Below are positions 29,209 to 54,003 of a stretch of DNA of 64,000 bases, in pieces (within the stretch, counting starts at the first letter, position 1; the number at the start of each line of letters is the position of its first letter). Under the pieces are notes generated by a model. The model was not told where the DNA came from and did no database searches. It was given only the letters and a program-made list of their open reading frames with translations. Both the position numbers and the translations under genes were made by a program. The stretch is from Bacteriovoracia bacterium (GTDB taxonomy: Bacteria > Bdellovibrionota > UBA1018 > CAIPTA01): NCBI GenBank assembly GCA_050246755.1, contig JBFWVL010000005.1, positions 128,001-192,000 of the forward strand. The letters run 5' to 3'.

Positions 29209-29302
29209 CCGGGCAAGATAGTGTGTGGGCGCCCACCACACGAAAAAAAGTGAGGGCCTTGCCCCCACACCCCCACGGGAGGGCGCTTGCAGCGCCCTCC
29301 CG
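29209..29302 (-). other. Putative oriT with IncP-like nic site and hairpins
   Basis: Minus strand CTATCTTG^CCCGG (RP4 is CTATCCTG^CCCGG); adjacent IR at 29221-29241; perfect 12-bp hairpin at 29276-29302. Confidence 0.75.
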
Positions 29303-29319
29303 AAATACAAAGAGCGGGT

Positions 29320-30855: not shown

Positions 30856-30863
30856 CGAACCTC

Positions 30864-34956: not shown

Positions 34957-35047
34957 ACGGAAACCTCCGTTTGTGGGTCACTCGCCGGATGATCGGTAGA
35001 GAGACTCTGGAAAATTCACCCTCTTGAGTAGTAGAAGGGCTGAAACT

Positions 35048-35440
35048 CTAGGCCGCTGGTGCAACTGGCTTTGGTGGAGCCTTGGATTTTTTCGGAGGAG
35101 CGGCTTTCGGACGATCTGCTGTGCGTTTCGACTTTTTGTCGGTCTTTGGCACATCGACCTTAACCATCGCCCAACTCTCGTCTTCAACGACGACCGAAAG
35201 CCATGACCCCCAGAAGTAGACCTTCGAGGTCATGTCGTGCGGGAATAGCCAGCCGACGACGACCTTTTCAGGGACTCGTGTGGGAACGTACTTCACGCCG
35301 CCGCTTGCACCGAGGCTTCCAAGAGGAGGTCCCTTCACATCGTAGCCTGCGCGCTCCTCAAGAACGGTCTTCGTCGGAGCCGAACTACAGGCCACTAGAC
35401 TAATCGAGAATGCGAGTGAAATAAGAGTAGATACCTTCAT
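35048..35440 (-). CDS. traV: TraV lipoprotein
   Basis: Lipobox LVAC and PTRVPEKVVVGWLFPH signature. Confidence 0.8.
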   Translation of the reverse strand: MKVSTLISLAFSISLVACSSAPTKTVLEERAGYDVKGPPLGSLGASGGVKYVPTRVPEKVVVGWLFPHDMTSKVYFWGSWLSVVVEDESWAMVKVDVPKTDKKSKRTADRPKAAPPKKSKAPPKPVAPAA

Positions 35441-36641: not shown

Positions 36642-36643
36642 TT

Positions 36644-37483
36644 CTATTCACCTTTCTTCTGCGAGGCTTGCGCATCGGGCTCCAGCGCTTCCATCGCGAG
36701 AATTACGTCGCGGCTCGATGAGGTATTTTTCGCCACCACGCGAACCAGTGTTTGATGGGTGCCTTTGCCTTTCGGGAAAAGCCGCTCTTCATCACTCTGT
36801 GCCAAAATGGCGAGGTTTGGATCGCCGACGGAAATATGGCGAACGTCAACCTCAACGGTCTTTCGCCAGCTAGTGTTCGTGACGCGATAGACATACCCAT
36901 TGAAGGGCGAGCCTTTGTAAACGCGGAGCAGTTCGACGGAAGCACTATTAAGCTTCGAAGGCATGTCACTCATAAGGCGCGTGACTTTGTATCCGGATAC
37001 TTCGTCGTCTCGGACCATTGCCTTAAGAAGCTCAACCTCCGAGATTTTGGGCGCATTAGGATCGGACTGGTCAGAGTCGAGAGCATCGCGAGGTTTGAAC
37101 TCATAGAAACTATCAGCGGCGGGGTCGCTCGGGCTGACGACGATCTTGGTTTTGATAACAGTGCCGTCAGCCAGAAAGAACGCGACCTCATTCACGCCGT
37201 TCGTGAACCGAGGAGTGACCGACAAAACCGTGTACGTCGGATCGGCGTCGTTGGCGGGCTTGATCGTAAGCCGGCCAGCCCCAGTTATTGTTTGCACAGC
37301 TTTTTGAAAGCGGAAAATCGTAGAGCTACCGTGCCGAATCCTCACTTGTTCTGCGGTCGATCCATAGAAGACCGCCTTTGCGACAGCTTCATCGGGCATT
37401 GCCACTTCGAGGGCAAGCACGAAAGATGAGCAGAAGAGAGCTGCCTTTAAGAGCTTTTCAATTTCTTTGTTTCGCTTGTGCAT
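36644..37483 (-). CDS. traK: TraK-like secretin-domain protein
   Basis: GGAGG RBS before ATG 37483, signal peptide, ELLKAM motif; between traE and traB. Confidence 0.7.
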   Translation of the reverse strand: MHKRNKEIEKLLKAALFCSSFVLALEVAMPDEAVAKAVFYGSTAEQVRIRHGSSTIFRFQKAVQTITGAGRLTIKPANDADPTYTVLSVTPRFTNGVNEVAFFLADGTVIKTKIVVSPSDPAADSFYEFKPRDALDSDQSDPNAPKISEVELLKAMVRDDEVSGYKVTRLMSDMPSKLNSASVELLRVYKGSPFNGYVYRVTNTSWRKTVEVDVRHISVGDPNLAILAQSDEERLFPKGKGTHQTLVRVVAKNTSSSRDVILAMEALEPDAQASQKKGE

Positions 37484-37496
37484 ACGCGCCTCCAAA

Positions 37497-38228
37497 TTAC
37501 TTGCCGGTTTTCGGTTGATTGATCGGTTGCGCAGCTTTGAAACCATCAGCGCGCGACCGCTTTAACGAAGTGATTTCGAGATACCACTCCTTGCCCTTCA
37601 TGGGCGGTACAAGCCGCATCGTCAGTTCAATCACTTCATCGACACGACCAAGACTCTCGCTATTCGAATAGCGTTCACGGTTCGCGATGGCCGTCATTTT
37701 GTAGAAGCCTTCGCCCGTGGCGACAGCCTCACGATCAGTGATTCTCAGAATCTCTGAGATATTTTCGTTTTTGACCGTTTCTCGCCACTCAGCGACTTCT
37801 GCCTCGAACTGAACGCGGAGCTCGGGAGCCATGAACGTCGCCAGGCGCTTATACTGCTCGTCGATGTTTGCGGCATTTACGTTTCCGAGCATCGAGAGGA
37901 AACTCATTCCGGCATTTACGACATAGGAATCGCTAACGGTTTGCGGAGCCGCCGTCGTGAAATCCATCACACCAGGAGCGAGGATGTATTCCTTCTCGCG
38001 CAGTTTCTTTTCCAGTCCATGAATCTCGATTCGCGAGAATGCGAAATTTGCGGCGAACGCGGCGACATGGATTGCGAGGATGTATTGGAGAGTAAGACGC
38101 TCTTTCAGCATCGCCGCTTTGAATGCCACAAACTTCGGGAGCACCCGCAAATCGACGCCTTGATAGACGCCGACCGGCCGGGTCGCGACTTGCGCTGCTT
38201 CAATGCCCTTATCCATTGCTGTCAGCAT
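37497..38228 (-). CDS. traE: TraE-like protein
   Basis: Single TM followed by ILAP and VSDSYV…LGNV; start reassigned to about 38228. Confidence 0.7.
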   Translation of the reverse strand: MLTAMDKGIEAAQVATRPVGVYQGVDLRVLPKFVAFKAAMLKERLTLQYILAIHVAAFAANFAFSRIEIHGLEKKLREKEYILAPGVMDFTTAAPQTVSDSYVVNAGMSFLSMLGNVNAANIDEQYKRLATFMAPELRVQFEAEVAEWRETVKNENISEILRITDREAVATGEGFYKMTAIANRERYSNSESLGRVDEVIELTMRLVPPMKGKEWYLEITSLKRSRADGFKAAQPINQPKTGK

Positions 38229-38448
38229 CTCGTTTGCCTTTCCGCTTAGTTGACTTCTCAGTCGCTGGAGTGGCGGCTCCAGGCGCCTCGACAGCGCGAT
38301 TCTTAGCGATAACGTCAAGGTACTTAGCCGAGACGATCCAAGTTTCCACGCGCTTGAAAATCCAGTAACGACCATCGCGAGAAAGGCGCTGAGTAAGTTC
38401 GAGATTAGGTTTGCGCTCGAAGCGTTTCGGGTTGTCTCCATTTTCCAT
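38209..38448 (-). CDS. Small hypothetical protein (79 aa) between traL and traE
   Basis: GGAGG RBS before ATG 38448; MENGDNPKRFERKPNLELTQRLSRDGRYWIFKRVETW. Confidence 0.6.
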   Translation of the reverse strand: MENGDNPKRFERKPNLELTQRLSRDGRYWIFKRVETWIVSAKYLDVIAKNRAVEAPGAATPATEKSTKRKGKRDADSNG

Positions 38449-38498
38449 TGGGCCTCCATTTGGTCTTGTTTTACGCTCACGTTTAAGTCCTCTCTTGG

Positions 38499-38843
38499 TT
38501 AGTCCGAGTACAGCCGCTCGCGGCCTCTCGGATTGATTACGCCCGGCAGGTCCATTCGCAGACGTGCGTAGGGCCAATGAAAGAAAATCCCCTTCGGATA
38601 CTTCCGCTTGATGACCGGGCCTGCGCCGAGACAAAGCAAGAGAAGCGTGAACATCGTTCCCCATGAGTAAAAGAGGACGCCGAAGATCAGGATGATGAAG
38701 AGCGCAATGAACACGTCTTGAAGTTCCCAGAAATCGAACACCATAATTGGCGAGTCGATTGTCTGGCTTACAAGTGAGGCGTGGCGCGCTTTTAGTAGTT
38801 CTTGCTTACGCACGCATGGTCTCCACGGAGATAGCGGGCGCAC
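38499..38843 (-). CDS. traL: TraL-like membrane protein (start probably GTG near 38813)
   Basis: IDSPIMVFDFW plus two TMs and KGIFFHW; follows the pilin. Confidence 0.7.
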   Translation of the reverse strand: MRPLSPWRPCVRKQELLKARHASLVSQTIDSPIMVFDFWELQDVFIALFIILIFGVLFYSWGTMFTLLLLCLGAGPVIKRKYPKGIFFHWPYARLRMDLPGVINPRGRERLYSD

Positions 38844-39255
38844 TCATGGAAAAGATTCCGCCACCGCCGCCTATGTCGAAAATGTTCTTTACCCAAGTAG
38901 GTGCGGTTCCGAGAACGATGGCCGCTACGATGCACAGAACGGCGATCCCGAATCGTTGCTCCTTCAGATTCCAACCGGCTGACATCACGCAAAGACCCGC
39001 AAAGATTCTGGCTCCCCAGGAGAACAGAACGGAATCGACGATGCGGAGAAGAGTTCCCGCCGCCTCAAGTTTGTCGCTCGCGTCTTGCCCTGGAATACGG
39101 ACTGTTGCCCCGAAGGCTTGCGCGTGCGCAAACCAAAGGAGCAGCATTGTAATCAGCAGAAATAAAAACCATTCCTCACGTTGCCGAGGATTGGGACTCT
39201 TCAGATGTGAACCGTGGATTAATGATCCACACAGCAATAGGCGCTCTCCGAGCAT
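38806..39255 (-). CDS. Conjugative pilin (TraA/VirB2-like)
   Basis: AAGGAG RBS, long leader ending AQAFGA, two hydrophobic helices. Confidence 0.7.
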   Translation of the reverse strand: MLGERLLLCGSLIHGSHLKSPNPRQREEWFLFLLITMLLLWFAHAQAFGATVRIPGQDASDKLEAAGTLLRIVDSVLFSWGARIFAGLCVMSAGWNLKEQRFGIAVLCIVAAIVLGTAPTWVKNIFDIGGGGGIFSMSAPAISVETMRA

Positions 39256-39363
39256 AGGAATTCTCCTTCGTCGGAAGCCCGCTCGCCTTTGGTGGTGGAG
39301 AGACTTCTAAATTAGATTTTTTAGCTTCTGCACTTGGTAGTGGTGAGCAGAAGTCGTTTCATA

Positions 39364-40128
39364 TCAACCGCGACTGGCCTCGCGAAGCAGCGCCATCACT
39401 TCTTCGAATTCATGGTAGCCCTGAATTCCTGGGAGAAGCGCCTTTCTCTTCAGATCGGCGATCACCAGGAACGGAACTGCCGTTCCTCCATGACTCTTCA
39501 GCTCCGCAAGATTGGCTTTGCCTATCGGCACGCCTTTTTCATCCGGAGGCACTTCTCCGTCATCGAGTTGAAGGGCTTCGATTTTGTAGCCTTCGTCTTG
39601 CAGCCGCTTCAGTACGGAGAACATTCGCCGACAATGAGGACAATGAGAGTCGAAGTACATTCGGATTCGGAATCTCGACGGATCAGGCCGCACCTGTGGA
39701 GCGACTTTCGCATCATTCTTTGCAACCCGAGTGGCTATCTGAACCGCAAGGCCTGGCCCTTCTTGCTTGCTGAGATACTCTTGCATTCGAGTTTCGAGCC
39801 GCGCGGCGAGTTCGTTTTTTCGTTTCATAAACTCGAACCAGTTCTTGAGGTTCTCGTCCGACGGGTCCTTCGCAACTTCCATGAATGGCTCTGGCGGCGT
39901 ATAGTCGCCTTCCTTAAAGAACTCCTTGTTCTTCGGGTCGAGGTAGGTCTTCCAAGGGAATGAACCCTTTTCTCCTCGCTCGGGAACAAGTGGAGAAGGA
40001 ATGTCCTTTGTTTGAGCCTGAACACGTCCTTCGTTCCAGTAGTCGATCTTTTGATCGAAGTATTGGAGTTCACCGGCGCTCGCTGCGGTTGAGAATAAGC
40101 ACAGCGAGAAAACCCATTGGCTAATCAT
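39364..40128 (-). CDS. TraF/TrbB-like periplasmic thioredoxin-fold protein
   Basis: Signal peptide from ATG 40128, CPHC motif, AVP cis-Pro. Confidence 0.75.
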   Translation of the reverse strand: MISQWVFSLCLFSTAASAGELQYFDQKIDYWNEGRVQAQTKDIPSPLVPERGEKGSFPWKTYLDPKNKEFFKEGDYTPPEPFMEVAKDPSDENLKNWFEFMKRKNELAARLETRMQEYLSKQEGPGLAVQIATRVAKNDAKVAPQVRPDPSRFRIRMYFDSHCPHCRRMFSVLKRLQDEGYKIEALQLDDGEVPPDEKGVPIGKANLAELKSHGGTAVPFLVIADLKRKALLPGIQGYHEFEEVMALLREASRG

Positions 40129-41302
40129 TCGCACGCGACACCTCCAGGGAATCAATTTCTCCGCGAAGGACGCGCGCAAGGCGGGCCTCGTGGATCGTTT
40201 GGTGAACTTTGACGATTTTCTTTCCCTCTGCCGGTTCCATCGTTGCCCACTCAAGAACAGGAACACGCCCGCGAATCCCAGCGCAGCAGTTCGAGCATCC
40301 TTGCTCGAACCGCTCGCGGGCTCGCATTGCGGAAGGTCTCTTTCGGCGGTCGATGCGTTGGAGCCATGCAGCCGTATCCATTGAGGGCTCAATCGCGCAA
40401 TCTGCGCAAAGCCGCTGTTCCAAACGCTGCGCAATCGAGAGTCTCAGATTCGATTCCATCACGATACGTTCGACGCCGAGACCTGCGAGACGCTCGATAA
40501 CTTCGAGCGAACCGTTTGCGTGAAGTGTTGTGAAAACAAGATGCCCGGTTTCCGCCGCTTGAAAGCAAAGTTTTGCCGTTTCGGCATCTCGAACCTCGCC
40601 GACCAGGATCACATCGGGGTCCTGCCGTAGCACGGATCGCAGAGCATCGGCGAAGCTCATCTTGCGGCTGACCTGCACTTGATTGAGTCCTTCAATGCGG
40701 TATTCGATGGGATCTTCCAGCGTCACTATGTTGAAGCGCTTGGGGTTGATGGCTTTGAGGCACGCATAGAGAGTTCGCGATTTTCCACTTCCAGTCGGCC
40801 CGGAGACGACTACAACGCCATCTTCGAGTGAAATGGCTCGCCTAAGAGCGGCGATCTCGTTCTCCAGGAAGCCCAGGCCATCCAGCTCGAATGTCGCATC
40901 GAGGTTGAGCAAGCGCATGACGATCTTTTCTCCGAAGTGAGTAGGCAGAAGACTTACGCGTACATCCATTCGGAGACTTGGCATCGACGCGCGCCCATCT
41001 TGCGGGCGACCGCTAACGCCAATCGAGAGACCGAAAATTCGTTTGGCTTCTAAGATCAAGCTCTCCCTGTGCTCCAGTTCGACCTGCTTTTCAAGGATGA
41101 GATTTCCGTCCACGCGGAGTCTTAAATCAACTCCGCTCTCATGCGGCTCAATATGCACGTCACTCGCGCCGCGAGCCTTCGCCGCTTTCATCAGGTCGTG
41201 AAAGAGGCGCGCATAGGGACCGCTCTCCAAAAGCAACTGCTCGCTCGTTCGCCGTTTGGCGACGCTTACGCCGTGTTCCTTCTCAAGCATTATTTCCGTC
41301 AC
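40121..41302 (-). CDS. GspE/PilB-family secretion ATPase
   Basis: ASDVHIEP, PQDGR, GPTGSGKS, TLEDPIE, LRQDPDVILVGEVRD, TGHLVFTTLH and a Cys Zn site. Confidence 0.9.
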   Translation of the reverse strand: MTEIMLEKEHGVSVAKRRTSEQLLLESGPYARLFHDLMKAAKARGASDVHIEPHESGVDLRLRVDGNLILEKQVELEHRESLILEAKRIFGLSIGVSGRPQDGRASMPSLRMDVRVSLLPTHFGEKIVMRLLNLDATFELDGLGFLENEIAALRRAISLEDGVVVVSGPTGSGKSRTLYACLKAINPKRFNIVTLEDPIEYRIEGLNQVQVSRKMSFADALRSVLRQDPDVILVGEVRDAETAKLCFQAAETGHLVFTTLHANGSLEVIERLAGLGVERIVMESNLRLSIAQRLEQRLCADCAIEPSMDTAAWLQRIDRRKRPSAMRARERFEQGCSNCCAGIRGRVPVLEWATMEPAEGKKIVKVHQTIHEARLARVLRGEIDSLEVSRAND

Positions 41303-44300
41303 TGCGCACCTGCGCAGGCTGCGGGGATTGCGAGAGCTGCCGCTTGCGCCTGAACCGCAGTCGGCATTTCTTTACAGGCAGTGGTGCGGTTCCAGATCAC
41401 GAACAGATAGCCCTTCAGTTTGCCGCTCGCTAGCCGCATGGTCTCGCGTGAATTTTTGATCGTTTCGAGCAATCCTATATTTTGTCCTTCTCGGAAACAT
41501 GAACTCGATTGAGGGTAGATCATCTGCCACTTCTCATCCGGGCCGCTCGGCATTGTATGAAGGACTTCGGCAGACAAACTCTTGATTCGCGAGGCAATCA
41601 TAAGAGCGCCGGCCATCGAAGCAGGTCCCGTGTATGTGCCGTAGCGCGGATAGAAAGTCCCCCAGCCATTGCAGGCCGGATGCGAACTGGGAGGAAGAAC
41701 ACCGATATTCGGCATCGGAGTGCCGCACATTGCGGAGTCCGATGAGTAGCTACTTCCAGGCGTGCCGGAAATGCTTGTGGCCGCGCCTGCAAGAAGACAG
41801 GCTTTCGGACTCAGGCTCCAAGCCAAGAAAAGTGGCTGGGTCAGATCACCTTTGCCAGTGTTCCAATGGCTGCCAAAGTCTTCGCTCATCCCATCGAAAC
41901 ACATTTTCTCGTTGCGCGTGCCGCCTGCTGGCATGAGCTTAAAGGTCATACTAGCGAACGGCACCGCAATCGTTCGAGCCTGGAAGCTTTGCGTATCATC
42001 ATCGGCCTCCGCGCCAAAAGGCATCGGAGTGACCTTCGAGAGCTGCGCCGCCGCTCCCGGAATGGCCGTGAAGTAGCTCGTCTTTGCCTCCGGCCAGACC
42101 TCAATGAACGTCTGAGGAACGTAGTACGAAATGAGTGCGCACGGATGCGGCGGGTATCCGCAGGTACAACCGCCAACTGCCAACTCAAGGCAGGACGAAA
42201 AGGCCGGACTACTTGCAACCGAACACACGTTCGGAATTCCTGCGGCTTGGACATTTCCGGCAAGCAGGAGTGACGCGGCTACTGCACGAGAGTTCCGAGA
42301 AAAGCTTTTGAGCCACGCCACAAAGCCTCCCTTTTTTGTTACCCGAAGCATTTCGAGAACCGTTTCGTGCTTCGTATTGACCGCCTTCAAGAAGTCGGGC
42401 TTGAGGTAAAGCTTGAGGAACTTCGTCTCGATGCCATCGAAAACTTGCGCGAACGCCTCAAAGGTTCGGAGGCGCGAAAATTCTTTGCCGGTCAGAATGT
42501 CTTCCCGGCGTGTGCCACGGCTCACGGCCTCGTTGAGACTGGAGTTCTTGGAATCGAAACCACCCGCAAGAAGATTTAGCTTCGCGGATTGCGCCGTTTC
42601 GGAAAACGAATGCGTCTGCGACTCCACATCTTCTTTTCCGGCGAGAGCTTGAAACATTTTGATCGTTTCAAGATCGGAAGAATGACAAGCAACGCGCGTC
42701 CGGAAGTTCTGCACGAGTTCAAGCGCTGGACGCTCTCTGCCGACGGTGTTCATCAAACTACTGAGCGACTGAGTTGCAACGATCACGGCAGGCTTTGATT
42801 CGCGGGCTTTAGCCATAAAGGAATCGTCTCCAAGCGTTCCTCCGCCTCCGCAGGTAACTACGTCCTGATACTCGTCAATGATGAGCGCCGAGGTTACCGG
42901 CATGTTCTTTTCTTTGAGCTCGGACAACAGATTCAACACAGCTTGCTCGTAGTGCAGCTTTATGAACGTGCCCATTGACCGCGCGAGGCCAGGCTGCTGA
43001 ATATCGAACAGTAAAATTTTTCCGCTCCGAACAAAGTCCTCCATCGAATGAATCGAAAGGTGTTCCTTGCGCGGACAGAAAATCCGACTGGCCGCAAACT
43101 CCTGAAACTGGTTCACAAAAGCAGTGCTCGTTGCCACGATTCCGGTACGAACGCGGTCTTCAAGTTGCGAGTATTCGTTCTCGAAATACTCGATGGCGCA
43201 ACCGATGTTGAACGCCTCTTCTTGCGTGAAGTTTTTCTCTTTGAGCACTTTTCGCAAATCGTCGGCCAAGTTGTTCTTCGCTGCGCGCACGATTGTTCGG
43301 TATAGATCGAGGAGCGTAAAGTATCCGTGAACCGCCGAGCAGTACGCGATGGTGTTGCGAATCAAATGGGAAGAAGACACGTCCCAAAACGGCGAATCAG
43401 ACGACTTGCCCATAAAATTCACAGCCGCGCAGCGAACCATCTCAGCGAGTGCTACAAACTTCGAGTCTTGCAGCGGATTCTCCATGAAGACTGGGTTGAA
43501 GCTTACGTTTCCCTTAAGTGAGAGTCTGACGATGCGATCCCCAAGACCGAGACGCCGGATCATATTCTCTGCTTCACGCAGGAACGTGCCTTTAGGGTCG
43601 ATGGCGAGGATCGAGGGAGGTCCCTTTGGTTCCGCGAGAAGCTGGCGAAGGTATCGCAGAATTGTGCCTTGGGTTTTCCCACTACCAATGCTTCCAGAAA
43701 TGAACACGCCACCGTGTACGCCGCGGCTAGGGATCGTTACCCATTCTTCGCGATCCTTATCTTCGACAGCTTCAAGCGCCCCGGGCGTTGTCCCTAACAC
43801 CATGTCTCCGCTTTCCTGAACAGGGCGTTCTAGCTTATGTGTGTCGGAAAGGTTGAATCGCAGGCTCCCTGCCAGCCTTAAGATCATTCGACACACGAAA
43901 TAGAACGCACCCGCCAGATTCGCAGAAAGTCCTACTTCGGCGAGCGACGTTGCGTTTGCCGAAATGAGCCGAAGAAAAAATGGAGCAAGGTCAACGACCA
44001 CGCTTCGCTTCGCCCCGAGGTACGCAACGGCTGAGAAAATTGCGGCGAGAATCTCGGCACGAGTGATAGCCCATCGCTCGGCCTTACCTTGTAGAATCTG
44101 AAGTTTGCTTCCTTGGCGTTCAAGGCCCACGCTTCGCTTCAGGAAAATTCCGAGAAAAGAAAGGTTGCAGGCGAACGCCACGACCGACCACCACCAGAAG
44201 GCACCGTGCTGCTGCAAGAGCTCTTCAACGACGAGCATCTTCGCAGGTTCAAACCGCAGGAAGTTTAGATAAACGTATCCCGCTGCTACTACGACGAATG

Positions 44301-44352
44301 CCATCACAGCAATCGAAAGCGGAACATCGTTTTGGGTCTTGGCAGTGTTCAA
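41299..44352 (-). CDS. TraD/VirD4 coupling protein fused to a C-terminal TraU-like Cys-rich domain
   Basis: N-terminal TMs, GSIGSGKT, IIDEYQ and ATQS; then a signal-like segment, SYYVPQTFIEVW and WGTFYPRYG (TraU-like). Confidence 0.8.
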   Translation of the reverse strand: MNTAKTQNDVPLSIAVMAFVVVAAGYVYLNFLRFEPAKMLVVEELLQQHGAFWWWSVVAFACNLSFLGIFLKRSVGLERQGSKLQILQGKAERWAITRAEILAAIFSAVAYLGAKRSVVVDLAPFFLRLISANATSLAEVGLSANLAGAFYFVCRMILRLAGSLRFNLSDTHKLERPVQESGDMVLGTTPGALEAVEDKDREEWVTIPSRGVHGGVFISGSIGSGKTQGTILRYLRQLLAEPKGPPSILAIDPKGTFLREAENMIRRLGLGDRIVRLSLKGNVSFNPVFMENPLQDSKFVALAEMVRCAAVNFMGKSSDSPFWDVSSSHLIRNTIAYCSAVHGYFTLLDLYRTIVRAAKNNLADDLRKVLKEKNFTQEEAFNIGCAIEYFENEYSQLEDRVRTGIVATSTAFVNQFQEFAASRIFCPRKEHLSIHSMEDFVRSGKILLFDIQQPGLARSMGTFIKLHYEQAVLNLLSELKEKNMPVTSALIIDEYQDVVTCGGGGTLGDDSFMAKARESKPAVIVATQSLSSLMNTVGRERPALELVQNFRTRVACHSSDLETIKMFQALAGKEDVESQTHSFSETAQSAKLNLLAGGFDSKNSSLNEAVSRGTRREDILTGKEFSRLRTFEAFAQVFDGIETKFLKLYLKPDFLKAVNTKHETVLEMLRVTKKGGFVAWLKSFSRNSRAVAASLLLAGNVQAAGIPNVCSVASSPAFSSCLELAVGGCTCGYPPHPCALISYYVPQTFIEVWPEAKTSYFTAIPGAAAQLSKVTPMPFGAEADDDTQSFQARTIAVPFASMTFKLMPAGGTRNEKMCFDGMSEDFGSHWNTGKGDLTQPLFLAWSLSPKACLLAGAATSISGTPGSSYSSDSAMCGTPMPNIGVLPPSSHPACNGWGTFYPRYGTYTGPASMAGALMIASRIKSLSAEVLHTMPSGPDEKWQMIYPQSSSCFREGQNIGLLETIKNSRETMRLASGKLKGYLFVIWNRTTACKEMPTAVQAQAAALAIPAACAGAQ

Positions 44353-46266: not shown

Positions 46267-46488
46267 TTAAACAGCGGCTCCGAGCGCGTATTCTTTCTCT
46301 CTGGGAAGAATCTCGCTCACGATTGATTTTGGTTTCACGGTCTTGAGAGCTGCGAGTGCCCAATCGGGAACAGCGCAGAGCTCTTCGGAGTGGGTCTCGT
46401 CATAGTTGCAGTTCACACAAAAGGCGTGAGTGCTGAATCTTTCCAAACCACGCTCACCACAACGGGGGCACATACAGAACTTGTTCAT
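46267..46488 (-). CDS. Small zinc-ribbon protein
   Basis: GAGGAG RBS; CPRC…CVNC. Confidence 0.7.
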   Translation of the reverse strand: MNKFCMCPRCGERGLERFSTHAFCVNCNYDETHSEELCAVPDWALAALKTVKPKSIVSEILPREKEYALGAAV

Positions 46489-46545: not shown

Positions 46546-46561
46546 TGCAAGAAGATGCCCG
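46546..46561 (-). promoter_or_regulatory. Putative sigma54 -24/-12 promoter facing the transfer region
   Basis: Minus strand C-GG-GCATCTTCTT-GC-A (GG-N10-GC, TTGCA); the -24 element is imperfect. Confidence 0.5.
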
Positions 46562-46634: not shown

Positions 46635-46757
46635 TGGTCTATCTAAATAGACCCGAGTCTTTTGAAATAGACCCGCGCCAGATTTTCTGGCTCAGGTCTT
46701 CGCTGCTGCGATCTGGATAAAGGGATCTTAGAGAAATGAGTCTACAAAAACAGACTC
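46635..46757. promoter_or_regulatory. Three copies of the GAGTCT-N8-AGACYC palindrome (candidate enhancer sites)
   Basis: TGGTCTATCTAAATAGACCC 46635-46654, GAGTCTTTTGAAATAGACCC 46655-46674, GAGTCTACAAAAACAGACTC 46738-46757. Confidence 0.75.
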
Positions 46758-46773
46758 GGGGTACGCGAACGCG

Positions 46774-47802
46774 TTAGCGTGCTGCGGAACTGAATGTCCT
46801 GCCGCCGAGAGACGCGGAAACTTCGCTTCCTCGAACTTGAACGGAGAAATCCGAATTGGATAGGGAGCATCCTTTGTCATTACTCAATAGCTTCGCAATG
46901 TAGAGGAAGCCTGTGGGCATCAGCGACGCGATTCGCCCTGAATTTAAAAGCTCCGAGACTAAAGACGCTTCACGGGCCGCGCCCTTCTCGAAAACAGCCG
47001 GAAGAGTCACGGGCAAGTAGTTGTCGTGCTGGTCTGAATAGGCATGAACCTGCGCTTCACCTACGAACTTAAAGAAATAGGGAACGTCACCTCGTCCGAG
47101 TTGCTCGACCTCGGAATCAAAAAGCGGAATTTCGGGTGGCTTCTGAAAAGCTAAGCGGTAGTGGATTGTATCTCTTAAGATATGGCGAATCGGAATCTTC
47201 TTGAACGTAGCTTGCTGGTCTTCGAACACGCGCTGTATCCCCGCAAGGTTCGAAGTGATGCACGAAAGTACGTCATAGTAACCGCGAAGAACAATCTCGA
47301 TTTGCTCAGAAGAAACAATCGCAAGGCTCAATATTGACGAAGCACCGCAGAGGTCGGCGTCGACTTCCTTAAACGGCAGTAAAAGCGTCTCATGCGGAAG
47401 CAGCAAGCGGGAAAGAACCACTTCAGCATCAACGACTTGAATGTGCGTCTCCGTCTTTACCACGTTATTTCTGTGCAAGTCGCGGATTCCGAAAACATAG
47501 CAGTATCCGAGGAGCACACCGAGACTGTACAAATGGGAGCCTGTACTTGGACCCATAGACGCGCGCACTTCCCGGGAAGACCCCTTGAAGTCAGCGCCCA
47601 TCTCTATTTCGAGATTGAAAATCGTCTGCGCAGGGGAAGCTGAGAACGTCGAATTTTTGAAGAAAAATGAGAGTGGACTGTCCTTACCAAAGAACAGCCA
47701 CTCCCAATAGATTGGGCGAGGTTTCTGAAAGATCATTTCAGAACCCCGTCCTATCTTTTGGACCGATTGTCCAAAATTATGGAAATCAGCCTCGAACTTC
47801 AT
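46774..47802 (-). CDS. Stand-alone minimal LanM-type dehydratase/kinase (DUF4135), no cyclase domain
   Basis: QKPR, DLHRNN, VDAE, RHILRDT and EQLGRGDVPYF match LanM dehydratase-domain motifs. Confidence 0.85.
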   Translation of the reverse strand: MKFEADFHNFGQSVQKIGRGSEMIFQKPRPIYWEWLFFGKDSPLSFFFKNSTFSASPAQTIFNLEIEMGADFKGSSREVRASMGPSTGSHLYSLGVLLGYCYVFGIRDLHRNNVVKTETHIQVVDAEVVLSRLLLPHETLLLPFKEVDADLCGASSILSLAIVSSEQIEIVLRGYYDVLSCITSNLAGIQRVFEDQQATFKKIPIRHILRDTIHYRLAFQKPPEIPLFDSEVEQLGRGDVPYFFKFVGEAQVHAYSDQHDNYLPVTLPAVFEKGAAREASLVSELLNSGRIASLMPTGFLYIAKLLSNDKGCSLSNSDFSVQVRGSEVSASLGGRTFSSAAR

Positions 47803-47808: not shown

Positions 47809-47889
47809 TTAGTTTGAGCTACTGCCAGAGATGTAAGAGTCTGCTTCGGCCTCAAGTGCCGCCAGATTAATTACGATTTGCTCTTGCAT
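47809..47889 (-). CDS. Unannotated 26-aa RiPP precursor peptide MQEQIVINLAALEAEADSYISGSSSN
   Basis: AAAGGAG RBS; TAA at 47809-47811, 6 nt before the DUF4135 ATG; acidic leader and Ser-rich C-terminus. Confidence 0.8.
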   Translation of the reverse strand: MQEQIVINLAALEAEADSYISGSSSN

Positions 47890-47910: not shown

Positions 47911-49704
47911 TTAGATAACACCCAGAAAGGAAGCCTTTTCAGGCTGCCCCCCACTAATAACCGGTACAATTCCTAAATAGTCTTTCGACAGCCAACGCAC
48001 TCCGAGGCGGTTTGTCCGACTTCGTACTTCAGCGTTTTCCGCCATGCCCGAAATTAAGATACTTTCAAAAGACAGGCCAAATCTCTCGATCAAATCGAGT
48101 CCGCTCGCGTCCTCATCCTTCAAATCACAATCGAACAGATAAAGTCTTTCGCCGAATTCTCCATGACCATTGGCTTCAATCCAATTGGTGAACGCCTCCA
48201 CTGAGGAGAGGTGAACTACTTCTGAAGGTATGGTTCCGAGCTCAGATAGCCTTCGCTGCCAGAGCGAATGAATCAGCGAGTCGTCATCTACAATGACAAC
48301 CTTCCCCTTGGCGGGAAGTTCAACGCAGTCCAGGAAGAGGTCTACTTTCCTAGAAAGTGGAATTCTCACCGCGACAGTTGTTCCTTCACCGATGGAAGAC
48401 TCAATTTGAATTGAGCCTCCAACCTTTTGCAGAACTTCTTTCGCATGGGTGAGCCCAATGCCGTTGCCGTGAGGTTTGCCAAAAGTAATCCTCTCGCTAA
48501 GAAGTTTCGAAAGAACTTCCTGCGGAATTCCTGTTCCATTGTCCTTAAAACGTATTTCCAAAGTCTCTTCGACTTTAGTTCCCGCTATGGTAATTCGTCC
48601 GCCTGTCCCAATGGCCTCGAAAGCATTGTCCAGGATCGTTGCGAACACCGTTTCGAGATCGCCGAGTGTCATGGCGCAAAATGAACCGAAGAACGCAGAT
48701 TCGTTTACGAACTCAACAGACGCTCGGAGGCTGGCGTACTGCGCCCGCTTTGAATCAGAAACGGTTTTGATTGTAGATAAAATGTGAATCGGCTCTTGGG
48801 TGGAAATCGATTCCGCCAAAACATTCGCGGCGGAGCTGCGATTCAACAAGCTGCCCGAAACGTCCTTTAAAGATGCAACGCAATCATTTAGGCTACGCTT
48901 GTCCTTCAACGAAAGATTCGGGATTTCATTGATTCTTAGCTGGAGAGTCGCAATCACGCCCTTAATAGCGTGTGCAACTTGCTCAGCCAGAGCCAAACGC
49001 AACTTATCCATTCCGACTGTTGCTAGATTCCTTTCCAGAACGACAATCTGCTTTAGTAACGTGGAAATCGAAGTAGTCAGCTCCTCAATCTCAAGAATTT
49101 GCGAGCGAGCGACTGGAGGCTCCTGTGCATGAGCAGAGTCAGGAAGCCCTTTTGCTACAAATTTGAGCCACTGAATTCGATTTTCGAGCGGTCCAATTAC
49201 CAGGTTGATGGTCATTCGTCTCATCCACCACATCAAAACCAGGAATACGCATCCAATGAACAGCGCAATCGAGGCAAGCAGTAGAACTCCGGATTGGATG
49301 AAACTCGCCAGGCTGACCTCTACGATGATCGAAAGCATCTGACCGGAGGGAAGGGGCGTTGTCTCTTCCACTCGCGAATGGAAAATTCCGAAGGGCTGCA
49401 ATTGCCCAGCATGGCTAATCAGCTTGCCGTCGAGTGAAATGTCCACGCGTAAATCCAAGTCTTGGGTCTCTTTCCACGTTTGTGTGAATCGCGCGATCTC
49501 CTTGTCGATCTCGTTCACGTTCTGGGAGTTCACGCCTGCTTCGGCCAACGCCGCAACATGATTGGTTACGAATCGCATTGCTTGGGTTTCTGTCTTCTTC
49601 AGCGAGTAAACGGAGTATGCGAGCAAAGCCAAGCCCGCAGCCCCAAGGCTCAGGGCCAGGCCGCGTTTTAGAATGCTGAGAATGACAGAGTAGATCGAGG
49701 TCAT
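47911..49704 (-). CDS. Hybrid sensor histidine kinase with C-terminal receiver domain
   Basis: Two TMs with a short periplasmic domain, QVAHAIKG H-box, DNAFEA, DNGTGI, GNGIGL; receiver IVDDD…LFD. Confidence 0.9.
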   Translation of the reverse strand: MTSIYSVILSILKRGLALSLGAAGLALLAYSVYSLKKTETQAMRFVTNHVAALAEAGVNSQNVNEIDKEIARFTQTWKETQDLDLRVDISLDGKLISHAGQLQPFGIFHSRVEETTPLPSGQMLSIIVEVSLASFIQSGVLLLASIALFIGCVFLVLMWWMRRMTINLVIGPLENRIQWLKFVAKGLPDSAHAQEPPVARSQILEIEELTTSISTLLKQIVVLERNLATVGMDKLRLALAEQVAHAIKGVIATLQLRINEIPNLSLKDKRSLNDCVASLKDVSGSLLNRSSAANVLAESISTQEPIHILSTIKTVSDSKRAQYASLRASVEFVNESAFFGSFCAMTLGDLETVFATILDNAFEAIGTGGRITIAGTKVEETLEIRFKDNGTGIPQEVLSKLLSERITFGKPHGNGIGLTHAKEVLQKVGGSIQIESSIGEGTTVAVRIPLSRKVDLFLDCVELPAKGKVVIVDDDSLIHSLWQRRLSELGTIPSEVVHLSSVEAFTNWIEANGHGEFGERLYLFDCDLKDEDASGLDLIERFGLSFESILISGMAENAEVRSRTNRLGVRWLSKDYLGIVPVISGGQPEKASFLGVI

Positions 49705-51227
49705 TCAACGCTCATTTCGACGCTTTCAAGAGGGAGCGTGTGAATCCCAAGCGGATGCGACGGCACTGACTTCACCCGACGGCTCCAAAGCCCAGAGGCT
49801 TCAGATCCGAAAAAAAGCGGAATCACAGTATTGTGTGCCAGAATTTTCTTTTGGATGTCCTTGTAGGCGTTCGCTCTGTCTTCTGGATCAACAATTTGAA
49901 TCACGTTGAGCAGAGCACTATCGACAGCTTTATCATCGACGTAAAAGTAATTAGATTCGTATTTGCCTTTGAAATAACCAAGGACAGAAAAGCCATCGGG
50001 GTAGTCCATCGCTTTTCGTGCGATGATAGCTTGGGACTTTTTCCCGAAGAGGCGCTGGAGTTTCTCACCCTTTGACAGTGCATTGAGCTTCACGGTTACG
50101 CCAAGTAGCGCCCACTTCTCTTTTAGAAAAAGTGCCGTCTTCTCTTCCAAGTTTGATGCGCCCTCGTAGTCCATCTCAATGACGATTGGCTTCGACGGTT
50201 TTGCCGACTTCATCGACTTCAACTGCTCCACGTCGGTTGCACTAAGTTCTCCGGCTAGACCAAATGGAATCAGGCCAAATGCCGCGCGATAAGACTGATT
50301 GCCAAGACTGCGAATGATTTCTGCGGAATCTACGGACGAATAGAGCGCGCGCCGCACATCACTCGGGACCTTCTCAGGATTGAAAACTACAAAAACTTCT
50401 CCCGCAAGTTCAGTAGCGGCGGCGGCCCAGCCCTGCTTTTGGAGTTTGGCCTTCTCGATATCGTCGATCCGATAGTGGTCGAGTGTATCAATCTTTTCAG
50501 CCAGCGCGAGCTCAACGGGTTTCTCGGCGACCATCGAATACGAAATGGATTTAGGAGGCAATGGGCTGTCCAGAGCGTCAGGTCTCCATTTCTCGATGGT
50601 GAGATTGGTCTTTGTTACTTCGCCGACGAGTTTGTAAGGGCCGCTAAACGCTCCCTTTGCTGAAATCTCCGGATTCTGTTTGAAGTCGTCAATCGGAAGG
50701 ATTGAGCAATCGGCTACAGCGAGTTGCTTCAGGAAAATGGCCGAGGGCTCGCTCAGTCGGAATTCGACAGTTTGATCGTCGATTGGAACCACTCCGAATT
50801 TTCCGATCTCCTGCTGGGTCTTGAATGCCCTCGCACCAGAAATGTAGTCAATGTCAGCGGCCATCGACGCTCCGACAAGAAACATCCTAGCGAACGTCAT
50901 TTGGACATTCTTGGCGGTGATCGGTTTTCCATCGGAAAATGTGGCTTTGCGTATTTTGAAGCGGTACGTCTTGTGATCTTCCGATTCAGTCCACGATTCC
51001 GCCAGGTCAGCGCGGATATCTCCGGTCGTGTTGTATCGGAGAAGCCCACGGTACAACTGAGTAGCCACAGCCATCGAGTACGCGTCTTCCATTTTCTGCG
51101 GATCGAGATTCATCGCCACCGCCGGCAAATGAATTCGCAACCCTTCAATCGCAGGAGTTTTAGATTTTGTGCAACTGACCATCACAGCTCCTAAAAGGAT
51201 GAATGCAACACCTCTACAAACGTGCAT
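49701..51227 (-). CDS. OppA/DppA-family (SBP_bac_5) peptide-binding lipoprotein, no ABC permease or ATPase nearby
   Basis: Lipobox VSC, LDP, LAESW, FSDGKPITA and SGPYKL. Confidence 0.9.
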   Translation of the reverse strand: MHVCRGVAFILLGAVMVSCTKSKTPAIEGLRIHLPAVAMNLDPQKMEDAYSMAVATQLYRGLLRYNTTGDIRADLAESWTESEDHKTYRFKIRKATFSDGKPITAKNVQMTFARMFLVGASMAADIDYISGARAFKTQQEIGKFGVVPIDDQTVEFRLSEPSAIFLKQLAVADCSILPIDDFKQNPEISAKGAFSGPYKLVGEVTKTNLTIEKWRPDALDSPLPPKSISYSMVAEKPVELALAEKIDTLDHYRIDDIEKAKLQKQGWAAAATELAGEVFVVFNPEKVPSDVRRALYSSVDSAEIIRSLGNQSYRAAFGLIPFGLAGELSATDVEQLKSMKSAKPSKPIVIEMDYEGASNLEEKTALFLKEKWALLGVTVKLNALSKGEKLQRLFGKKSQAIIARKAMDYPDGFSVLGYFKGKYESNYFYVDDKAVDSALLNVIQIVDPEDRANAYKDIQKKILAHNTVIPLFFGSEASGLWSRRVKSVPSHPLGIHTLPLESVEMSVE

Positions 51228-52392
51228 AACCAGCTCTTTGCTTCGCCTGAAATCTCGGCAATGTCATAAGGCCGAGTACGATCGCGCAAAAGGCTCCTCG
51301 CCACAGTCCATCGGCAAATACCGGGAGAACCTTGCTCCACGATCCCACCAGGAGTTCGCCGCTCGCAAGAATGACAACCATTTGAGTCATGCGCGCACTC
51401 GTGACTGCTCCCATCTTTTCCTGGGGTGTATCCATCTGAATGTGCGCTGAGATTCTATGAAGAATCAGCCAGTAAAACGTATCTTTGGAGAGAGCGAGAG
51501 CAACCGTTATCCAGCCCATGCCAGAAAAGTAGCCGAGCATGCCATAAGAGACCGCAAGCCCGATCCAAAGAGACGATGAACGCTCACTAAGGGAATTGGA
51601 CCGCTCGATATATCCGGCAAACCACACGGCGACTCCGTAGATACCAATTAGAAGTGCCATCCACTTTTGATCGTCGCCCACCAGACGAGCTGTGAAGGAG
51701 GTCGTTCCCATCATTGAAATGGCCAAGAGCAAATCTAAGACGGCAGCGCGACTATTGTATCTGTAGAAGTCGGCGAACTTCGCGAAGACACTCTCGGCAA
51801 ACGAAGCTGCTCGCTCAATCGTGGGCTCCGCAATTGGCAAGAAGAATACAATGATTCCATTTGCCGTGAATGTCGCGAGATCGAACCAGATCGCAGTTTC
51901 GAATGTCGAATACTTAATGATGGGCCACGCGCAAAGACCGGCGAAAAGTGTAGCTCCTTGAGTTGCCTTGTTGAACCAGATTGCGTGACTTGCATTCGAG
52001 GCATACGAAGTGTCTGCCAAGAGCTTCGTGATCTTCGCTTTGCTGCCTGCCTGGAACGAAACGATGGAAGTTTTGAGTAGACTGAAAGCAACGAGTAGCC
52101 AGTATCCGTGGTGGCCCTGTTCCCAGGCCCAAAGAATACCGAGTGAAGCCGCAGCCGCACCAAGTTCAGCTACAACGATGGTCAGCCGCGGAGAAATAGA
52201 ATCGGTAACATGCCCGAACAGGCCAGCAATGATTATGGGTACTAACCGCTGAAGACCTAGAATTAAACTGATGTGAAAAAGGTCAAAGCCCCCCTGAACC
52301 ATGAAGGCAACCAAGCAGATATTGAACGTGAAACTCCCAATGGAAGAAAGGAGCGTGCCCAAGTAAAACCAAGAGGCTAGGTTCATTTTCAT
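51214..52392 (-). CDS. MFS transporter, probable peptide exporter
   Basis: About 12 TMs, GHVTD motif A-like loop, QMDTPQEKMG. Confidence 0.85.
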   Translation of the reverse strand: MKMNLASWFYLGTLLSSIGSFTFNICLVAFMVQGGFDLFHISLILGLQRLVPIIIAGLFGHVTDSISPRLTIVVAELGAAAASLGILWAWEQGHHGYWLLVAFSLLKTSIVSFQAGSKAKITKLLADTSYASNASHAIWFNKATQGATLFAGLCAWPIIKYSTFETAIWFDLATFTANGIIVFFLPIAEPTIERAASFAESVFAKFADFYRYNSRAAVLDLLLAISMMGTTSFTARLVGDDQKWMALLIGIYGVAVWFAGYIERSNSLSERSSSLWIGLAVSYGMLGYFSGMGWITVALALSKDTFYWLILHRISAHIQMDTPQEKMGAVTSARMTQMVVILASGELLVGSWSKVLPVFADGLWRGAFCAIVLGLMTLPRFQAKQRAGYARL

Positions 52393-53870
52393 GATACTGC
52401 CTCCTCGGTCTCCGCAGACTCGCCGAGAAGACGTTTCTTTCTGTTGAAGTAAGCTGCCTTCGACATTCCGAGAAGCGTATAGAGGAATCTGTTATTCCCA
52501 TCGAAAAGCTTCAATCCGCTGGCTAGATACAAGCGTTCCATCCATTCGAGGGCCGACTGAAATTGCGCTGCGGAAACATCCTCCTTCGAGCGCGGAAGCA
52601 GTCCATCGGGAATGAAAATTAGCTGATCCGGCGAAACAGCATTCGGATCAAGGCCAAGGTGTTCAGGTTTCAACACGGGCCTGGAGGAACCCTTGATGTC
52701 AATGTAAGCGCGTTCAACCGCATTCTGAAGCTCTCGAATGTTCCCACGCCAAGGATATGCAGCGAGCACCTTGCGTGCGGGCACGGAAATCTTTCCCATT
52801 GGAAGTCGGCGCTTCAAAAACTCCTCGGCCAAATATTCGATGTCCTCTGGACGCTCTCTCAGCGCCGGGACGCGAAGGGAAATCTGATTGAGACGGTAGA
52901 AGAGGTCTTCTCTGAAACGTCCCTTTTTGATTTCGGCTTCCAGGTCTCGGTTTGTAGCCGCAATCACGCGCACATTCACGGTAACGGGCTTGATGGCACC
53001 CACTGGAGTAAAGGTTTGTTCTTGGAGAACTCGCAAAAGCTTAGCCTGCATTTCCAAGGGAACTTCACCGATCTCATCGAGAAAGATGTCACCACCGTCG
53101 GCAAGCTTGAATTGGCCCTGCTTCGCCTCTGATGCCCCGGTGAAGGCGCCTTTTGCGTGACCAAACAACTCACTCTCGAAAAGGTTCGCCGGGATCGCGG
53201 CGCAATTGACGGCAATGAATGGTCGCGAGGGATCGTCTTCTTGAAGGTTGAGATTCCTGGCTACTAGCTCTTTTCCGGTTCCGTTTTCTCCAGTGATAAG
53301 AACGTAGGAATGTGTTCCCTTCATTCTCAGGATGTCGCGACGAAGCTTCAAAGTAACTTCGGAAACGCCCAATATCTCGTATGAACGAACATGCGTTGCG
53401 AGCTTGGCCGTTAATTTCCGATTTTTCTCAAACTGCGTTTCGTTTTCCTGAATCAGAGTCCGATTTCGTCGAAGGATCGCAGCTTTCTCCAATACGTTTG
53501 CCACGCGAAATTTTAGGTTTGCTGCAAATTCATCCGAGCCTTTGATGACGAAATCGGCCGCGCCAGCCTTCATCGTTTCAATAATGGTTTCGGGCTGACT
53601 ATTTCCGGTCAACATCACGACAGGGAGCTCGGGCATTCGGCGCTTGAGGAGCTTCAAAAATTCCAGCCCTGAAATTTGAGGTAAACCAAAGTCGAGAAGA
53701 ACTAGATCGGGCCGGAACTGGCCGAGGACCCGCATCGCTTCAGTCGGCTCATGGACCGTCGATACCTCGTGCTCCTGGCGAAAAAGAGCTACAACGGACT
53801 CAGCGAAACGCTTGTCATCGTCTACGAGCAGAATCCTTAAAGCTGGTGTTCCTTCTGGGCTTTCCGGCAT
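52389..53870 (-). CDS. Sigma54-dependent (NtrC-family) response regulator
   Basis: Receiver LLVDDD/LLD, GENGTGKE, ESELFGH, GAFTGA, FREDLFYRL, WRGNIREL, C-terminal HTH. Confidence 0.95.
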   Translation of the reverse strand: MPESPEGTPALRILLVDDDKRFAESVVALFRQEHEVSTVHEPTEAMRVLGQFRPDLVLLDFGLPQISGLEFLKLLKRRMPELPVVMLTGNSQPETIIETMKAGAADFVIKGSDEFAANLKFRVANVLEKAAILRRNRTLIQENETQFEKNRKLTAKLATHVRSYEILGVSEVTLKLRRDILRMKGTHSYVLITGENGTGKELVARNLNLQEDDPSRPFIAVNCAAIPANLFESELFGHAKGAFTGASEAKQGQFKLADGGDIFLDEIGEVPLEMQAKLLRVLQEQTFTPVGAIKPVTVNVRVIAATNRDLEAEIKKGRFREDLFYRLNQISLRVPALRERPEDIEYLAEEFLKRRLPMGKISVPARKVLAAYPWRGNIRELQNAVERAYIDIKGSSRPVLKPEHLGLDPNAVSPDQLIFIPDGLLPRSKEDVSAAQFQSALEWMERLYLASGLKLFDGNNRFLYTLLGMSKAAYFNRKKRLLGESAETEEAVS

Positions 53871-53883: not shown

Positions 53884-53900
53884 AGCTAGGTTCATGCCAA
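53884..53900 (-). promoter_or_regulatory. Sigma54 -24/-12 promoter of the signalling operon
   Basis: Minus strand TTGGCATGAACCTAGCT fits TGGCACG-N4-TTGCW with exact GG-N10-GC spacing. Confidence 0.75.
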
Positions 53901-53983: not shown

Positions 53984-54003
53984 GAGTCTATATAGATAGA
54001 CCC
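53984..54003. promoter_or_regulatory. Fourth copy of the GAGTCT-N8-AGACYC palindrome
   Basis: GAGTCTATATAGATAGACCC, about 85 bp upstream of the -24 element. Confidence 0.75.

Follow-up and report, generated by a model that had tools for sequence, protein, structure and literature searches.

The window analyzed here, a stretch of 64,000 nucleotides (nt) from a Bacteriovoracia bacterium (contig JBFWVL010000005.1, positions 128,001 to 192,000), encodes a 342-amino-acid (aa) enzyme that resembles the dehydration domain of LanM and closes an operon for a short peptide and a putative sensory pathway, next to the transfer genes of a probable integrative and conjugative element (ICE). We propose, from sequence comparison and predicted structure, that this enzyme would mature a peptide signal carrying dehydroalanine, through which transfer of the ICE would be controlled in a Gram-negative host. 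The steps of this proposal (dehydration of Ser24 of the peptide, export and sensing, control by the operon's activator, and action between cells) are not independent of one another, and we give the whole, whatever the sign of the response, a probability of about 0.5.

A short LanM-type enzyme that begins at the P-loop

46774..47802, minus strand: minimal LanM-type kinase/dehydratase, 342 aa (open reading frame (ORF), Pfam, alignment, fold match)

The frame contains no internal stop across 46774-47802 and yields 342 aa with no membrane or signal segment. A Pfam scan, the first check that the first-pass annotation had suggested, matched it to DUF4135 (E 7.7e-13) and gave no LANC_like match, while the TIGR03897 LanM model covers it only locally (32.7 bits, cut-off 304). 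Searching the PDB with the family profile returned CylM (E 2.7e-6) and LicM2 (E 0.001) and no other match up to E 10; the profile was required, as the single sequence returned nothing relevant. The AlphaFold model (pLDDT 95.2) found its best fold match in CylM (Foldseek E 1.9e-8; VIA Z 19.1, rmsd 3.8, 285 residues aligned from CylM residue 247 on) and its second best in LicM2 (Z 15.7), followed by PI3K-family kinases (Z about 11), so that the second suggested check, a comparison of the predicted fold with CylM, also came out LanM-like. ESM Atlas matches were to DUF4135 clusters only, and no relative was found in viral contigs. The annotation's description of a minimal, stand-alone LanM dehydratase domain of 342 aa is thus supported by profile, fold and residue conservation.

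In CylM the dehydration domain comprises residues 4-624, residue 247 is the start of the P-loop, and capping helices (residues 5-131 and 180-200) hold the KA domain (PMC4550811). Because the structural match starts at CylM residue 247, we take the enzyme to lack the cyclase as well as the capping helices and most of the N-lobe: it begins at the P-loop, has no counterpart of CylM 1-246 and is, as had been claimed, much shorter than a LanM N-terminal domain (342 aa against 624 for that of CylM). Its C-terminal end forms a small four-strand sheet, and the last 83 residues, folded alone (pLDDT 89), matched only pilin-like arrangements with Z <=5.3. By analogy with three strands of CylM, this sheet may be a leader-binding element.

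The short length is, to judge from the relatives, a family trait and not a truncation, because among 241 relatives of at least 300 aa the length ranges from 305 to 423 aa with a median of 345, and the P-loop Asp is preceded by a median of 5 residues. These 241 were drawn from 264 stored proteins, leaving out fragments, the peptide and a shorter call of the window enzyme. The family profile collected 274 clusters at E 1e-30 or better, and its best 150 matches are all <=423 aa, so no fused cyclase appears among them and the claimed lack of a LanC cyclase holds for the family as for the enzyme; a search for longer forms picked up 3 full-length LanMs, all weak matches, among 8000 scored candidates, which says little in either direction. 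For a cyclase acting in trans, the window's genome (G000, 95.7% complete) gave no PF05147 match, but control genomes gave none either, and tblastn with three LanM C-terminal parts found no match. Named relatives are nearly all labelled Bdellovibrionota, which suggests this phylum for the window too, and the family is present in 32/401 genomes of that phylum and in 0/7 other genomes of the window's own taxonomic family, a patchy distribution that fits mobile DNA. So small a LanM family is easily overlooked: one published DUF4135 network imposed a 500-residue minimum (PMC10676384), and the database gene call of the window enzyme starts at Met23 (320 aa), which cuts off two catalytic candidates, D6 and H8.

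A longer subfamily (552-587 aa) adjoins glycosyltransferase genes at L115:9305-10960, L116:7806-9566 and L097. At L096 and L097 a Cys- and Thr-rich precursor lies upstream of the enzyme, possibly for a different peptide product.

Both halves of the active site are conserved

All of the motifs named by the first-pass annotation (KPR, DLHxxN, DxE, the R-x5-T pair of RHILRDT, and GDVPYF) are found in the ORF, as K27-P-R, D108-L-H110-x-x-N113, D125-x-E127, R206-x5-T212 and G238-D-V-P-Y-F, and an 85-row alignment has invariant columns at K27, P28, D108, H110, N113, D125, E127, R206, T212, D239, P241 and F244. Overlooked at that stage were D6 and H8, the second half of the elimination set. CylM phosphorylates with K274, D347, H349, N352 and D364 and eliminates with D252, H254, R506 and T512 (PMC4550811). 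By profile alignments and spacing, without coordinate superposition, enzyme residues D6/H8/K27/D108/H110/N113/D125/R206/T212 correspond to CylM D252/H254/K274/D347/H349/N352/D364/R506/T512, so that 9/9 are kept; DxHxxN, DxE and R/T were aligned to CylM and D-x-H to LicM2, and K27 was placed by motif and spacing. The complete D/H/R/T elimination set occurs in 111/113 near and 112/128 distant relatives (223/241).

The annotation had named two cyclase-less models, the dehydratase PoyF and the peptide kinase that matures phospeptin. The latter, EmbM, stops at phosphorylation, and key residues of its elimination site are mutated (PMC9259500; PMC9505594), whereas all four are kept here. For this reason the evidence leans towards a dehydratase, strengthening the first option at the expense of the second, and by its residues the enzyme is not EmbM-like. 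We regard dehydration of Ser24 as moderately likely.

A peptide gene precedes the enzyme gene

47809..47889, minus strand: 26-aa precursor peptide MQEQIVINLAALEAEADSYISGSSSN (ORF, conservation, adjacency to the enzyme)

The stop of the peptide gene, which has a strong ribosome-binding site, lies 6 nt ahead of the enzyme start. Changes in this gene are most frequent at third codon positions in 8/8 comparisons, and the peptide has no NCBIfam match. Across 43 aligned distinct peptides (a 44th, from L011, misfit the anchor pattern and was omitted) the leader reads I-[ND]-L-x-x-[LI]-E and continues into an acidic stretch; a near-invariant Ser lies close to the C-terminus, 9 positions past where the leader motif ends. 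The column equivalent to Ser24 holds Ser in 41 of the 43 and Thr in 1, and the column after it Ser in 34. Cys occurs in 7/43 and is missing from the window peptide. Compared with lanthipeptide precursors, this peptide is mostly Cys-free across the family, and its leader does not end in a Gly-Gly motif. A tail poor in Cys, with just one near-invariant hydroxyl residue, would suit a dehydratase that has no cyclase.

Immediately upstream of the enzyme, 37/39 close, 8/10 intermediate and 3/24 distant loci have a leader-type peptide, compared with 1.2% of 1500 random windows. The score behind these counts was tuned on close loci, and similar peptides fall slightly under its threshold in several distant loci. 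This score replaced a first regular expression that proved too strict, with 41 matches among 72 loci. Several assemblies among L001-L024 hold two copies of the cassette, and the peptide cores differ in 6/6 locus pairs whose record names share an assembly prefix.

Genes for S9 prolyl-oligopeptidases stand within distant operons of enzyme, binding protein and kinase (L107:13345-15447 and L109:11747-13867) and are candidate leader peptidases.

Sensor and regulator genes share the operon

47911..49704, minus strand: hybrid histidine kinase, 597 aa (Pfam; H245, HATPase_c, C-terminal receiver-like domain with D525)
49701..51227, minus strand: solo family-5 (OppA/DppA-type) solute-binding protein, 508 aa, with a lipoprotein-like N-terminus (domain scans)
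51214..52392, minus strand: MFS transporter, 392 aa, putative peptide exporter (MFS_1, conserved position)
52389..53870, minus strand: sigma-54 activator with receiver, AAA+ domain with GAFTGA, and C-terminal helix-turn-helix-like tail (domain scans)

The operon runs from the sigma-54 activator through MFS transporter, solo binding protein, hybrid kinase and 26-aa peptide to the enzyme as its last gene, and the frames of the upstream genes overlap or abut; the true start of the activator may lie a few codons later. The kinase has membrane segments at about 15-33 and 126-164 that enclose a short extracytoplasmic domain, and no ABC permease or ATPase accompanies the binding protein in the operon. 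The MFS_1 match of the transporter (E 2e-4) is under the Pfam cut-off, which its relatives exceed. Kinase residues H245 and D525 are invariant in 23/23 rows; in 20/20 activators the GAFTGA loop is either unchanged or differs by Ser in place of Ala or Thr. Against the LuxO model the activator scored 282.7 bits, far short of the 800-bit cut-off and about as high as with other NtrC-type models.

In 19/20 close loci with enough upstream DNA the full gene order is kept, bringing precursor, maturation, export, receptor and regulator genes together. It is kept in 0/4 distant loci, where the MFS, binding-protein and kinase genes, or the last two, are divergent instead. Ten further loci with an enzyme of ~350 aa, 9 of them distant, hold a family-5 protein and kinase in 8 cases, a kinase only in 1 and neither in 1 (the flank scan of distant loci examined 66 of 133 ORFs across 12 loci). 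The linkage of enzyme and sensor thus survives rearrangement, because family-5 protein and kinase flank the enzyme in 8/10 loci in other orders. Enzyme and binding-protein trees largely agree, and this agreement, with pairwise identity correlations, shows inheritance as a unit and not co-evolution. A predicted complex of the binding protein with the outer domain of the kinase scored 0.25 against a mark of 0.32. Export by the MFS transporter and sensing by binding protein and kinase are, on this gene content, quite likely.

A sister cassette at G000:C5:220042-226084 (L119:8042-14084) comprises a sigma-54 activator, a radical SAM enzyme, a 112-aa protein, a family-5 binding protein and a kinase. 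It adjoins pilin and VirB4 genes on a second ICE, probably bounded by a 17-nt near-repeat of the tRNA-Pro 3′ end (207549 and 240395). This cassette has no MFS gene, and its 112-aa protein starts, by eye, with a signal-like stretch; the window cassette pairs an MFS transporter with a signal-less peptide, and this difference lends support to the MFS transporter as exporter. At L112:7930-17563 two sets of binding-protein, MFS and kinase genes accompany a second, partial enzyme gene, possibly a duplicated circuit.

Shared palindromes point to control of the transfer operon

53884..53899, minus strand: sigma-54 promoter-like site TGGCATGAACCTAGCT of the cassette operon (same pattern in 18/20 loci)
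53984..54003, no strand assigned: palindromic site, putative activator-binding site, 104 nt upstream of the sigma-54 site (comparison)
46738..46757, no strand assigned: distal palindromic site before the transfer operon (comparison)
46635..46674, no strand assigned: two tandem palindromic sites before the transfer operon (comparison)
46546..46561, minus strand: conserved TTGCA box, in the window with GG at sigma-54 distance, candidate transfer-operon promoter (comparison)
46267..46488, minus strand: 73-aa zinc-ribbon-like protein, the first transfer-operon gene in many related elements

A TGGCA-N8-GC site lies ahead of the cassette operon in 18/20 loci, and the window genome encodes rpoN (sigma-54). 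With a fixed pattern, a palindrome was found 102-108 nt upstream of this site in 12/20 loci. A matrix trained only on activator-promoter sites, with the tested locus left out, found sites in the 330 nt that precede the next operon in 17 of 20 loci picked for zinc-ribbon or transfer genes, or in 15/18 without L013 and L049, which had been included for palindromes already seen; related loci among these are not independent. Site density there was 38 in 6.6 kb (5.8 per kb), compared with 47 in 250 kb elsewhere (0.19 per kb). Matrix sites were also present in 4/5 loci where 0.9-2.9 kb of other genes intervene, which argues that the palindromes belong to the transfer operon.

Two of the three matrix misses, L012 and L018, have a divergent activator recognition helix and different palindromes of their own, which stand 110 nt ahead of the activator promoter and recur ahead of the transfer operon. 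A locus's own site fitted its own transfer promoter above the mean of the others in 12/12 cases and ranked first, ties included, in 9; the 12 include L005 and L024, where the automatic picker took a non-consensus site. This pairing of site and helix at both promoters is our best evidence that the cassette activator controls transfer. We consider it very probable that the activator acts on its own operon and on the transfer operon, and the evidence for this control is stronger than that for the chemistry, for export or for the sign of the response. The whole genome holds 4 copies of the palindrome, with 3.3 expected and 3/4 at the cassette; as the pattern was derived from those sites, this count is uninformative alone. 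The palindromes score as terminator-like hairpins, a function we rejected because their arm sequence is kept, their distance to the sigma-54 site is fixed and they change with the activator helix.

Two helix-turn-helix genes lie just upstream of the cassette promoter (window 54091-54854), and the 82-aa one recurs there in L011, L015 and L046. The first genes past the palindromes include small regulators, with sigma70 region 4 only (L011, L017, L024, L037, L049) or with a DksA/TraR finger (L013, L050), which are possible second-tier activators of transfer.

The cassette lies in a probable ICE

26342..44352, minus strand: conjugation region with TraD-like coupling protein, secretion ATPase, TraF-like, pilin-like, TraE, TraK, TrbI/VirB10, TraC/VirB4, TraG_N and relaxase (Pfam, NCBIfam)
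24280..25545, minus strand: tyrosine integrase (Pfam)
24180..24190, no strand assigned: 11-nt copy of the tRNA-Met 3′ end, probable attachment (att) site (comparison with the tRNA-Met gene at G000:C5:201546)

The window itself has no tRNA gene. BLAST and exact-repeat searches missed the att site; direct comparison with the tRNA-Met 3′ end revealed it just beyond the integrase, 49 kb from the tRNA-Met gene, and this placement puts the cassette inside an ICE of ~49 kb. Integrase, relaxase, coupling protein, VirB4-type ATPase and att repeat enclose the cassette, the repeat being only 11 nt long. A genus-level DNA search for an empty integration site matched 1/5 genomes only, at 67% over part of the integrase region. 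With the window genome's transfer proteins as the only tblastn queries, transfer genes were found <=8 kb away in 13/19 distinct close loci, in two arrangements; each of these 19 extends at least 6.9 kb downstream, and the set excludes duplicates, short loci and two loci in which tblastn did not match the enzyme.

The coupling-protein ORF (window 41299-44352, 1017 aa) has a C-terminal part of ~340 aa that is unlike TraD and weakly matches TIGR03756; two ICE genes may be fused here. Cargo of the ICE (window 56012-63951 and G000:C5:195867-200798) includes a SNF2 helicase, DUF2779, a radical SAM protein, a TaqI-like specificity domain, SRAP, a CoiA-like protein and an AbiE pair. A remnant-like region at G000:C8:3814-10192 contains a helix-turn-helix gene, a 652-aa regulator ORF, part of the 337-aa lipoprotein-like gene (71% identical) and most of the coupling-protein gene (75%), without the remaining transfer genes. 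In L022:9318-13139 and L044:9177-13001 the gene right after that of the enzyme encodes a 1274-aa AAA+/peptidase M41 protein, where other loci have transfer genes.

Discussion

In the circuit that we propose, the enzyme would bind the acidic leader in the cytoplasm, phosphorylate Ser24 (perhaps Ser25 too) with ATP and eliminate the phosphate to leave dehydroalanine, with no ring formed. The MFS transporter would export the peptide, and a host protease would trim it, possibly after the EAEAD segment. In the periplasm the solo OppA-type protein would bind the modified C-terminal piece and change the state of the adjacent hybrid kinase, a step suggested by gene linkage. The kinase would in turn control the sigma-54 activator, which would bind one palindrome upstream of its own operon, giving feedback, and two or three palindromes upstream of the transfer operon, sites that were found by comparison. 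Transfer would then depend on build-up of the element's own signal. Activation by the signal is tentatively favoured over a repression-type sign, and we think it likely, if a little less so than export and sensing, that the peptide acts between cells.

Several results weigh against this circuit. SrnM-10 has the Arg and the Thr yet leaves phosphothreonine (PMC10235938), so retention of these residues is no guarantee of elimination, and the enzyme lacks CylM-type capping helices. A Pfam scan found no protease gene in the window's operon or the close-clade cassette, which makes the peptide's mature form a guess, and its crossing of the outer membrane is unexplained. No transfer gene was found by tblastn in 6/19 close loci or in 10/10 distant loci with long flanks. 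The choice and relatedness of the matrix loci, given above, temper the palindrome counts. In front of the transfer operon, GG lies at sigma-54 distance from the TTGCA box in only 4/17 loci, the window included, and TGGCA stands ten bases, one helical turn, further up in 6/17 (L009, L011, L015, L017, L019 and L046, about 55-90 nt before the zinc-ribbon gene). Since the GG spacing fits only these 4/17, plain sigma-54 activation of the transfer operon is not established.

The same circuit might carry a different signal, either a phosphoserine peptide or a dehydroalanine intermediate that reacts further by thiol or amine addition, or by hydrolysis to a keto-acyl end after cleavage. A phosphorylated product would have parallels in EmbM and SrnM-10 and would suit the loss of the capping helices; against it, all four elimination residues are conserved family-wide, and the key ones are mutated in EmbM. 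Further reaction has a published parallel in PoyF, whose dehydrated residue becomes an alpha-keto group after cleavage, and the 7/43 peptides with Cys would allow it, but the invariant Ser, 9 positions past the leader motif and near the C-terminus, does not lie at a likely cleavage site. Altogether we consider these variants of the signal unlikely. Somewhat less likely again is a private loop, in which the peptide stays in the producer's periplasm and serves as a self-feedback switch, timer or confinement sensor with no cell-to-cell signal. Exporter, binding protein and kinase do all act at the inner membrane, and the cassette has no outer-membrane channel. A 9-residue core exceeds typical porin limits. 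Peptide signals that regulate conjugation between cells are nevertheless on record, and the cores vary between elements, with 6/6 pairs differing, as expected if neighbours were discriminated, although plain drift would give the same.

Two further explanations we find improbable. The enzyme may have a target other than the peptide, as a protein or lipid kinase of PI3K fold that carries out or modulates the response of the two-component system. PI3K-family kinases come next among the fold matches, no peptide scores above threshold in 21/24 distant loci, and the LanM-like agr effector CA_C0082 of Clostridium is dispensable for signal synthesis (PMC10301443). Yet CA_C0082 lacks the catalytic residues, all of which this family keeps, including the LanM-specific elimination set; the peptide gene with its near-invariant Ser abuts the enzyme gene, and the distant shortfall must be read with a score tuned on close loci and near-threshold peptides seen beyond them. 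A shade more improbable is an antimicrobial or effector peptide, with the MFS transporter for efflux or immunity, two-component genes that regulate production in the manner of auto-regulated lantibiotic clusters, and a purely positional link to transfer. LanM clusters with kinase and regulator genes are described as making antimicrobials, and distant family members have no nearby transfer genes. Here, however, the core of about 9 residues is polar, usually Cys-free and not cyclisable by the enzyme, and the activator sites accompany the transfer operon despite intervening genes and vary with the activator helix.

The dehydroalanine signal circuit that we favour shares features with several known systems. 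With LanM dehydration domains (CylM, PDB 5DZT; LicM2, 6ST5) the enzyme shares the five phosphorylation and four elimination residues, an adjacent leader-core peptide and, from the P-loop onwards, a lipid-kinase fold. Unlike in class II lanthipeptide operons, there is no peptidase-containing ABC transporter in the window operon. PoyF and EmbM were compared by published descriptions, without sequences. PoyF is likewise a cyclase-less LanM-type enzyme, described as making one dehydration on a linear peptide, but it is one of several enzymes in a proteusin pathway, which involves a nitrile-hydratase-like leader and has a protease of its own, whereas the window enzyme is the sole maturase of a 26-aa precursor in a sensor operon. 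EmbM, too, is a sole cyclase-less maturase of a Cys-free peptide with kinase and regulator genes in the cluster, and differs in its Nif11-type Gly-Gly precursor as well as in its elimination residues. By its residues and fold, the window enzyme would act in the manner of the LanM dehydration domain and PoyF, yet it does not count as a LanM, because it has no fused cyclase and its peptide no Cys core.

The first-pass annotation held that a signalling context would be new, a claim that goes too far: a LanM accompanies a histidine kinase and regulator in the salivaricin 10 cluster (PMC10235938), the phospeptin cluster has kinase and regulator genes too (PMC9505594), and LanM-like genes adjoin agr operons in Clostridium (PMC10301443). 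Element-encoded signals that regulate transfer genes are likewise known, as in RapI-PhrI of ICEBs1, cCF10/iCF10-PrgX of pCF10 and TraI/TraR of the Ti plasmid, the last with positive feedback (PMC4010749). The Gram-positive conjugation peptides are imported to cytoplasmic receptors and Ti uses an acyl-homoserine lactone; the conjugation control covered in that review involves lactone, opine and SOS for Gram-negative elements and peptides for Gram-positive ones (PMC4010749). Unlike ICEBs1, pCF10 and Ti, the window circuit would run from a maturase through a periplasmic binding protein and a membrane kinase to a sigma-54 activator. The LuxP-LuxQ-LuxU-LuxO relay of Vibrio resembles it in joining a binding protein, a hybrid kinase and a sigma-54 activator, with the difference that the window binding protein is of family 5 and no phosphotransfer protein was seen in the operon. 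No description of the enzyme family or the circuit was found in open-licence PMC and bioRxiv texts, though subscription papers or supplements could mention them. What is apparently new, as not found described there, is the combination, in a Gram-negative phylum, of a Cys-poor peptide, solo OppA-type protein, hybrid kinase and sigma-54 activator linked to the transfer genes of an ICE.

If the proposal is true, Gram-negative bacteria and the control of conjugation would both gain modified-peptide signalling. About 340 residues would then suffice for LanM phosphorylation and elimination without capping helices, and the enzyme could be a compact tool for installing dehydroalanine. With two short genes, the proposal is directly testable. 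A wider view, which we hold tentatively and at somewhat less than even odds, is that Bdellovibrionota and their mobile elements use undescribed enzyme-modified peptide pheromones, built on a fixed sensing scaffold of solo OppA-type protein, hybrid kinase and sigma-54 activator with interchangeable maturases, among which this family would supply the dehydratase. A half-size LanM would then make an envelope-crossing linear dehydroalanine pheromone that switches ICE transfer, and element-specific cores and operators would form separate channels.

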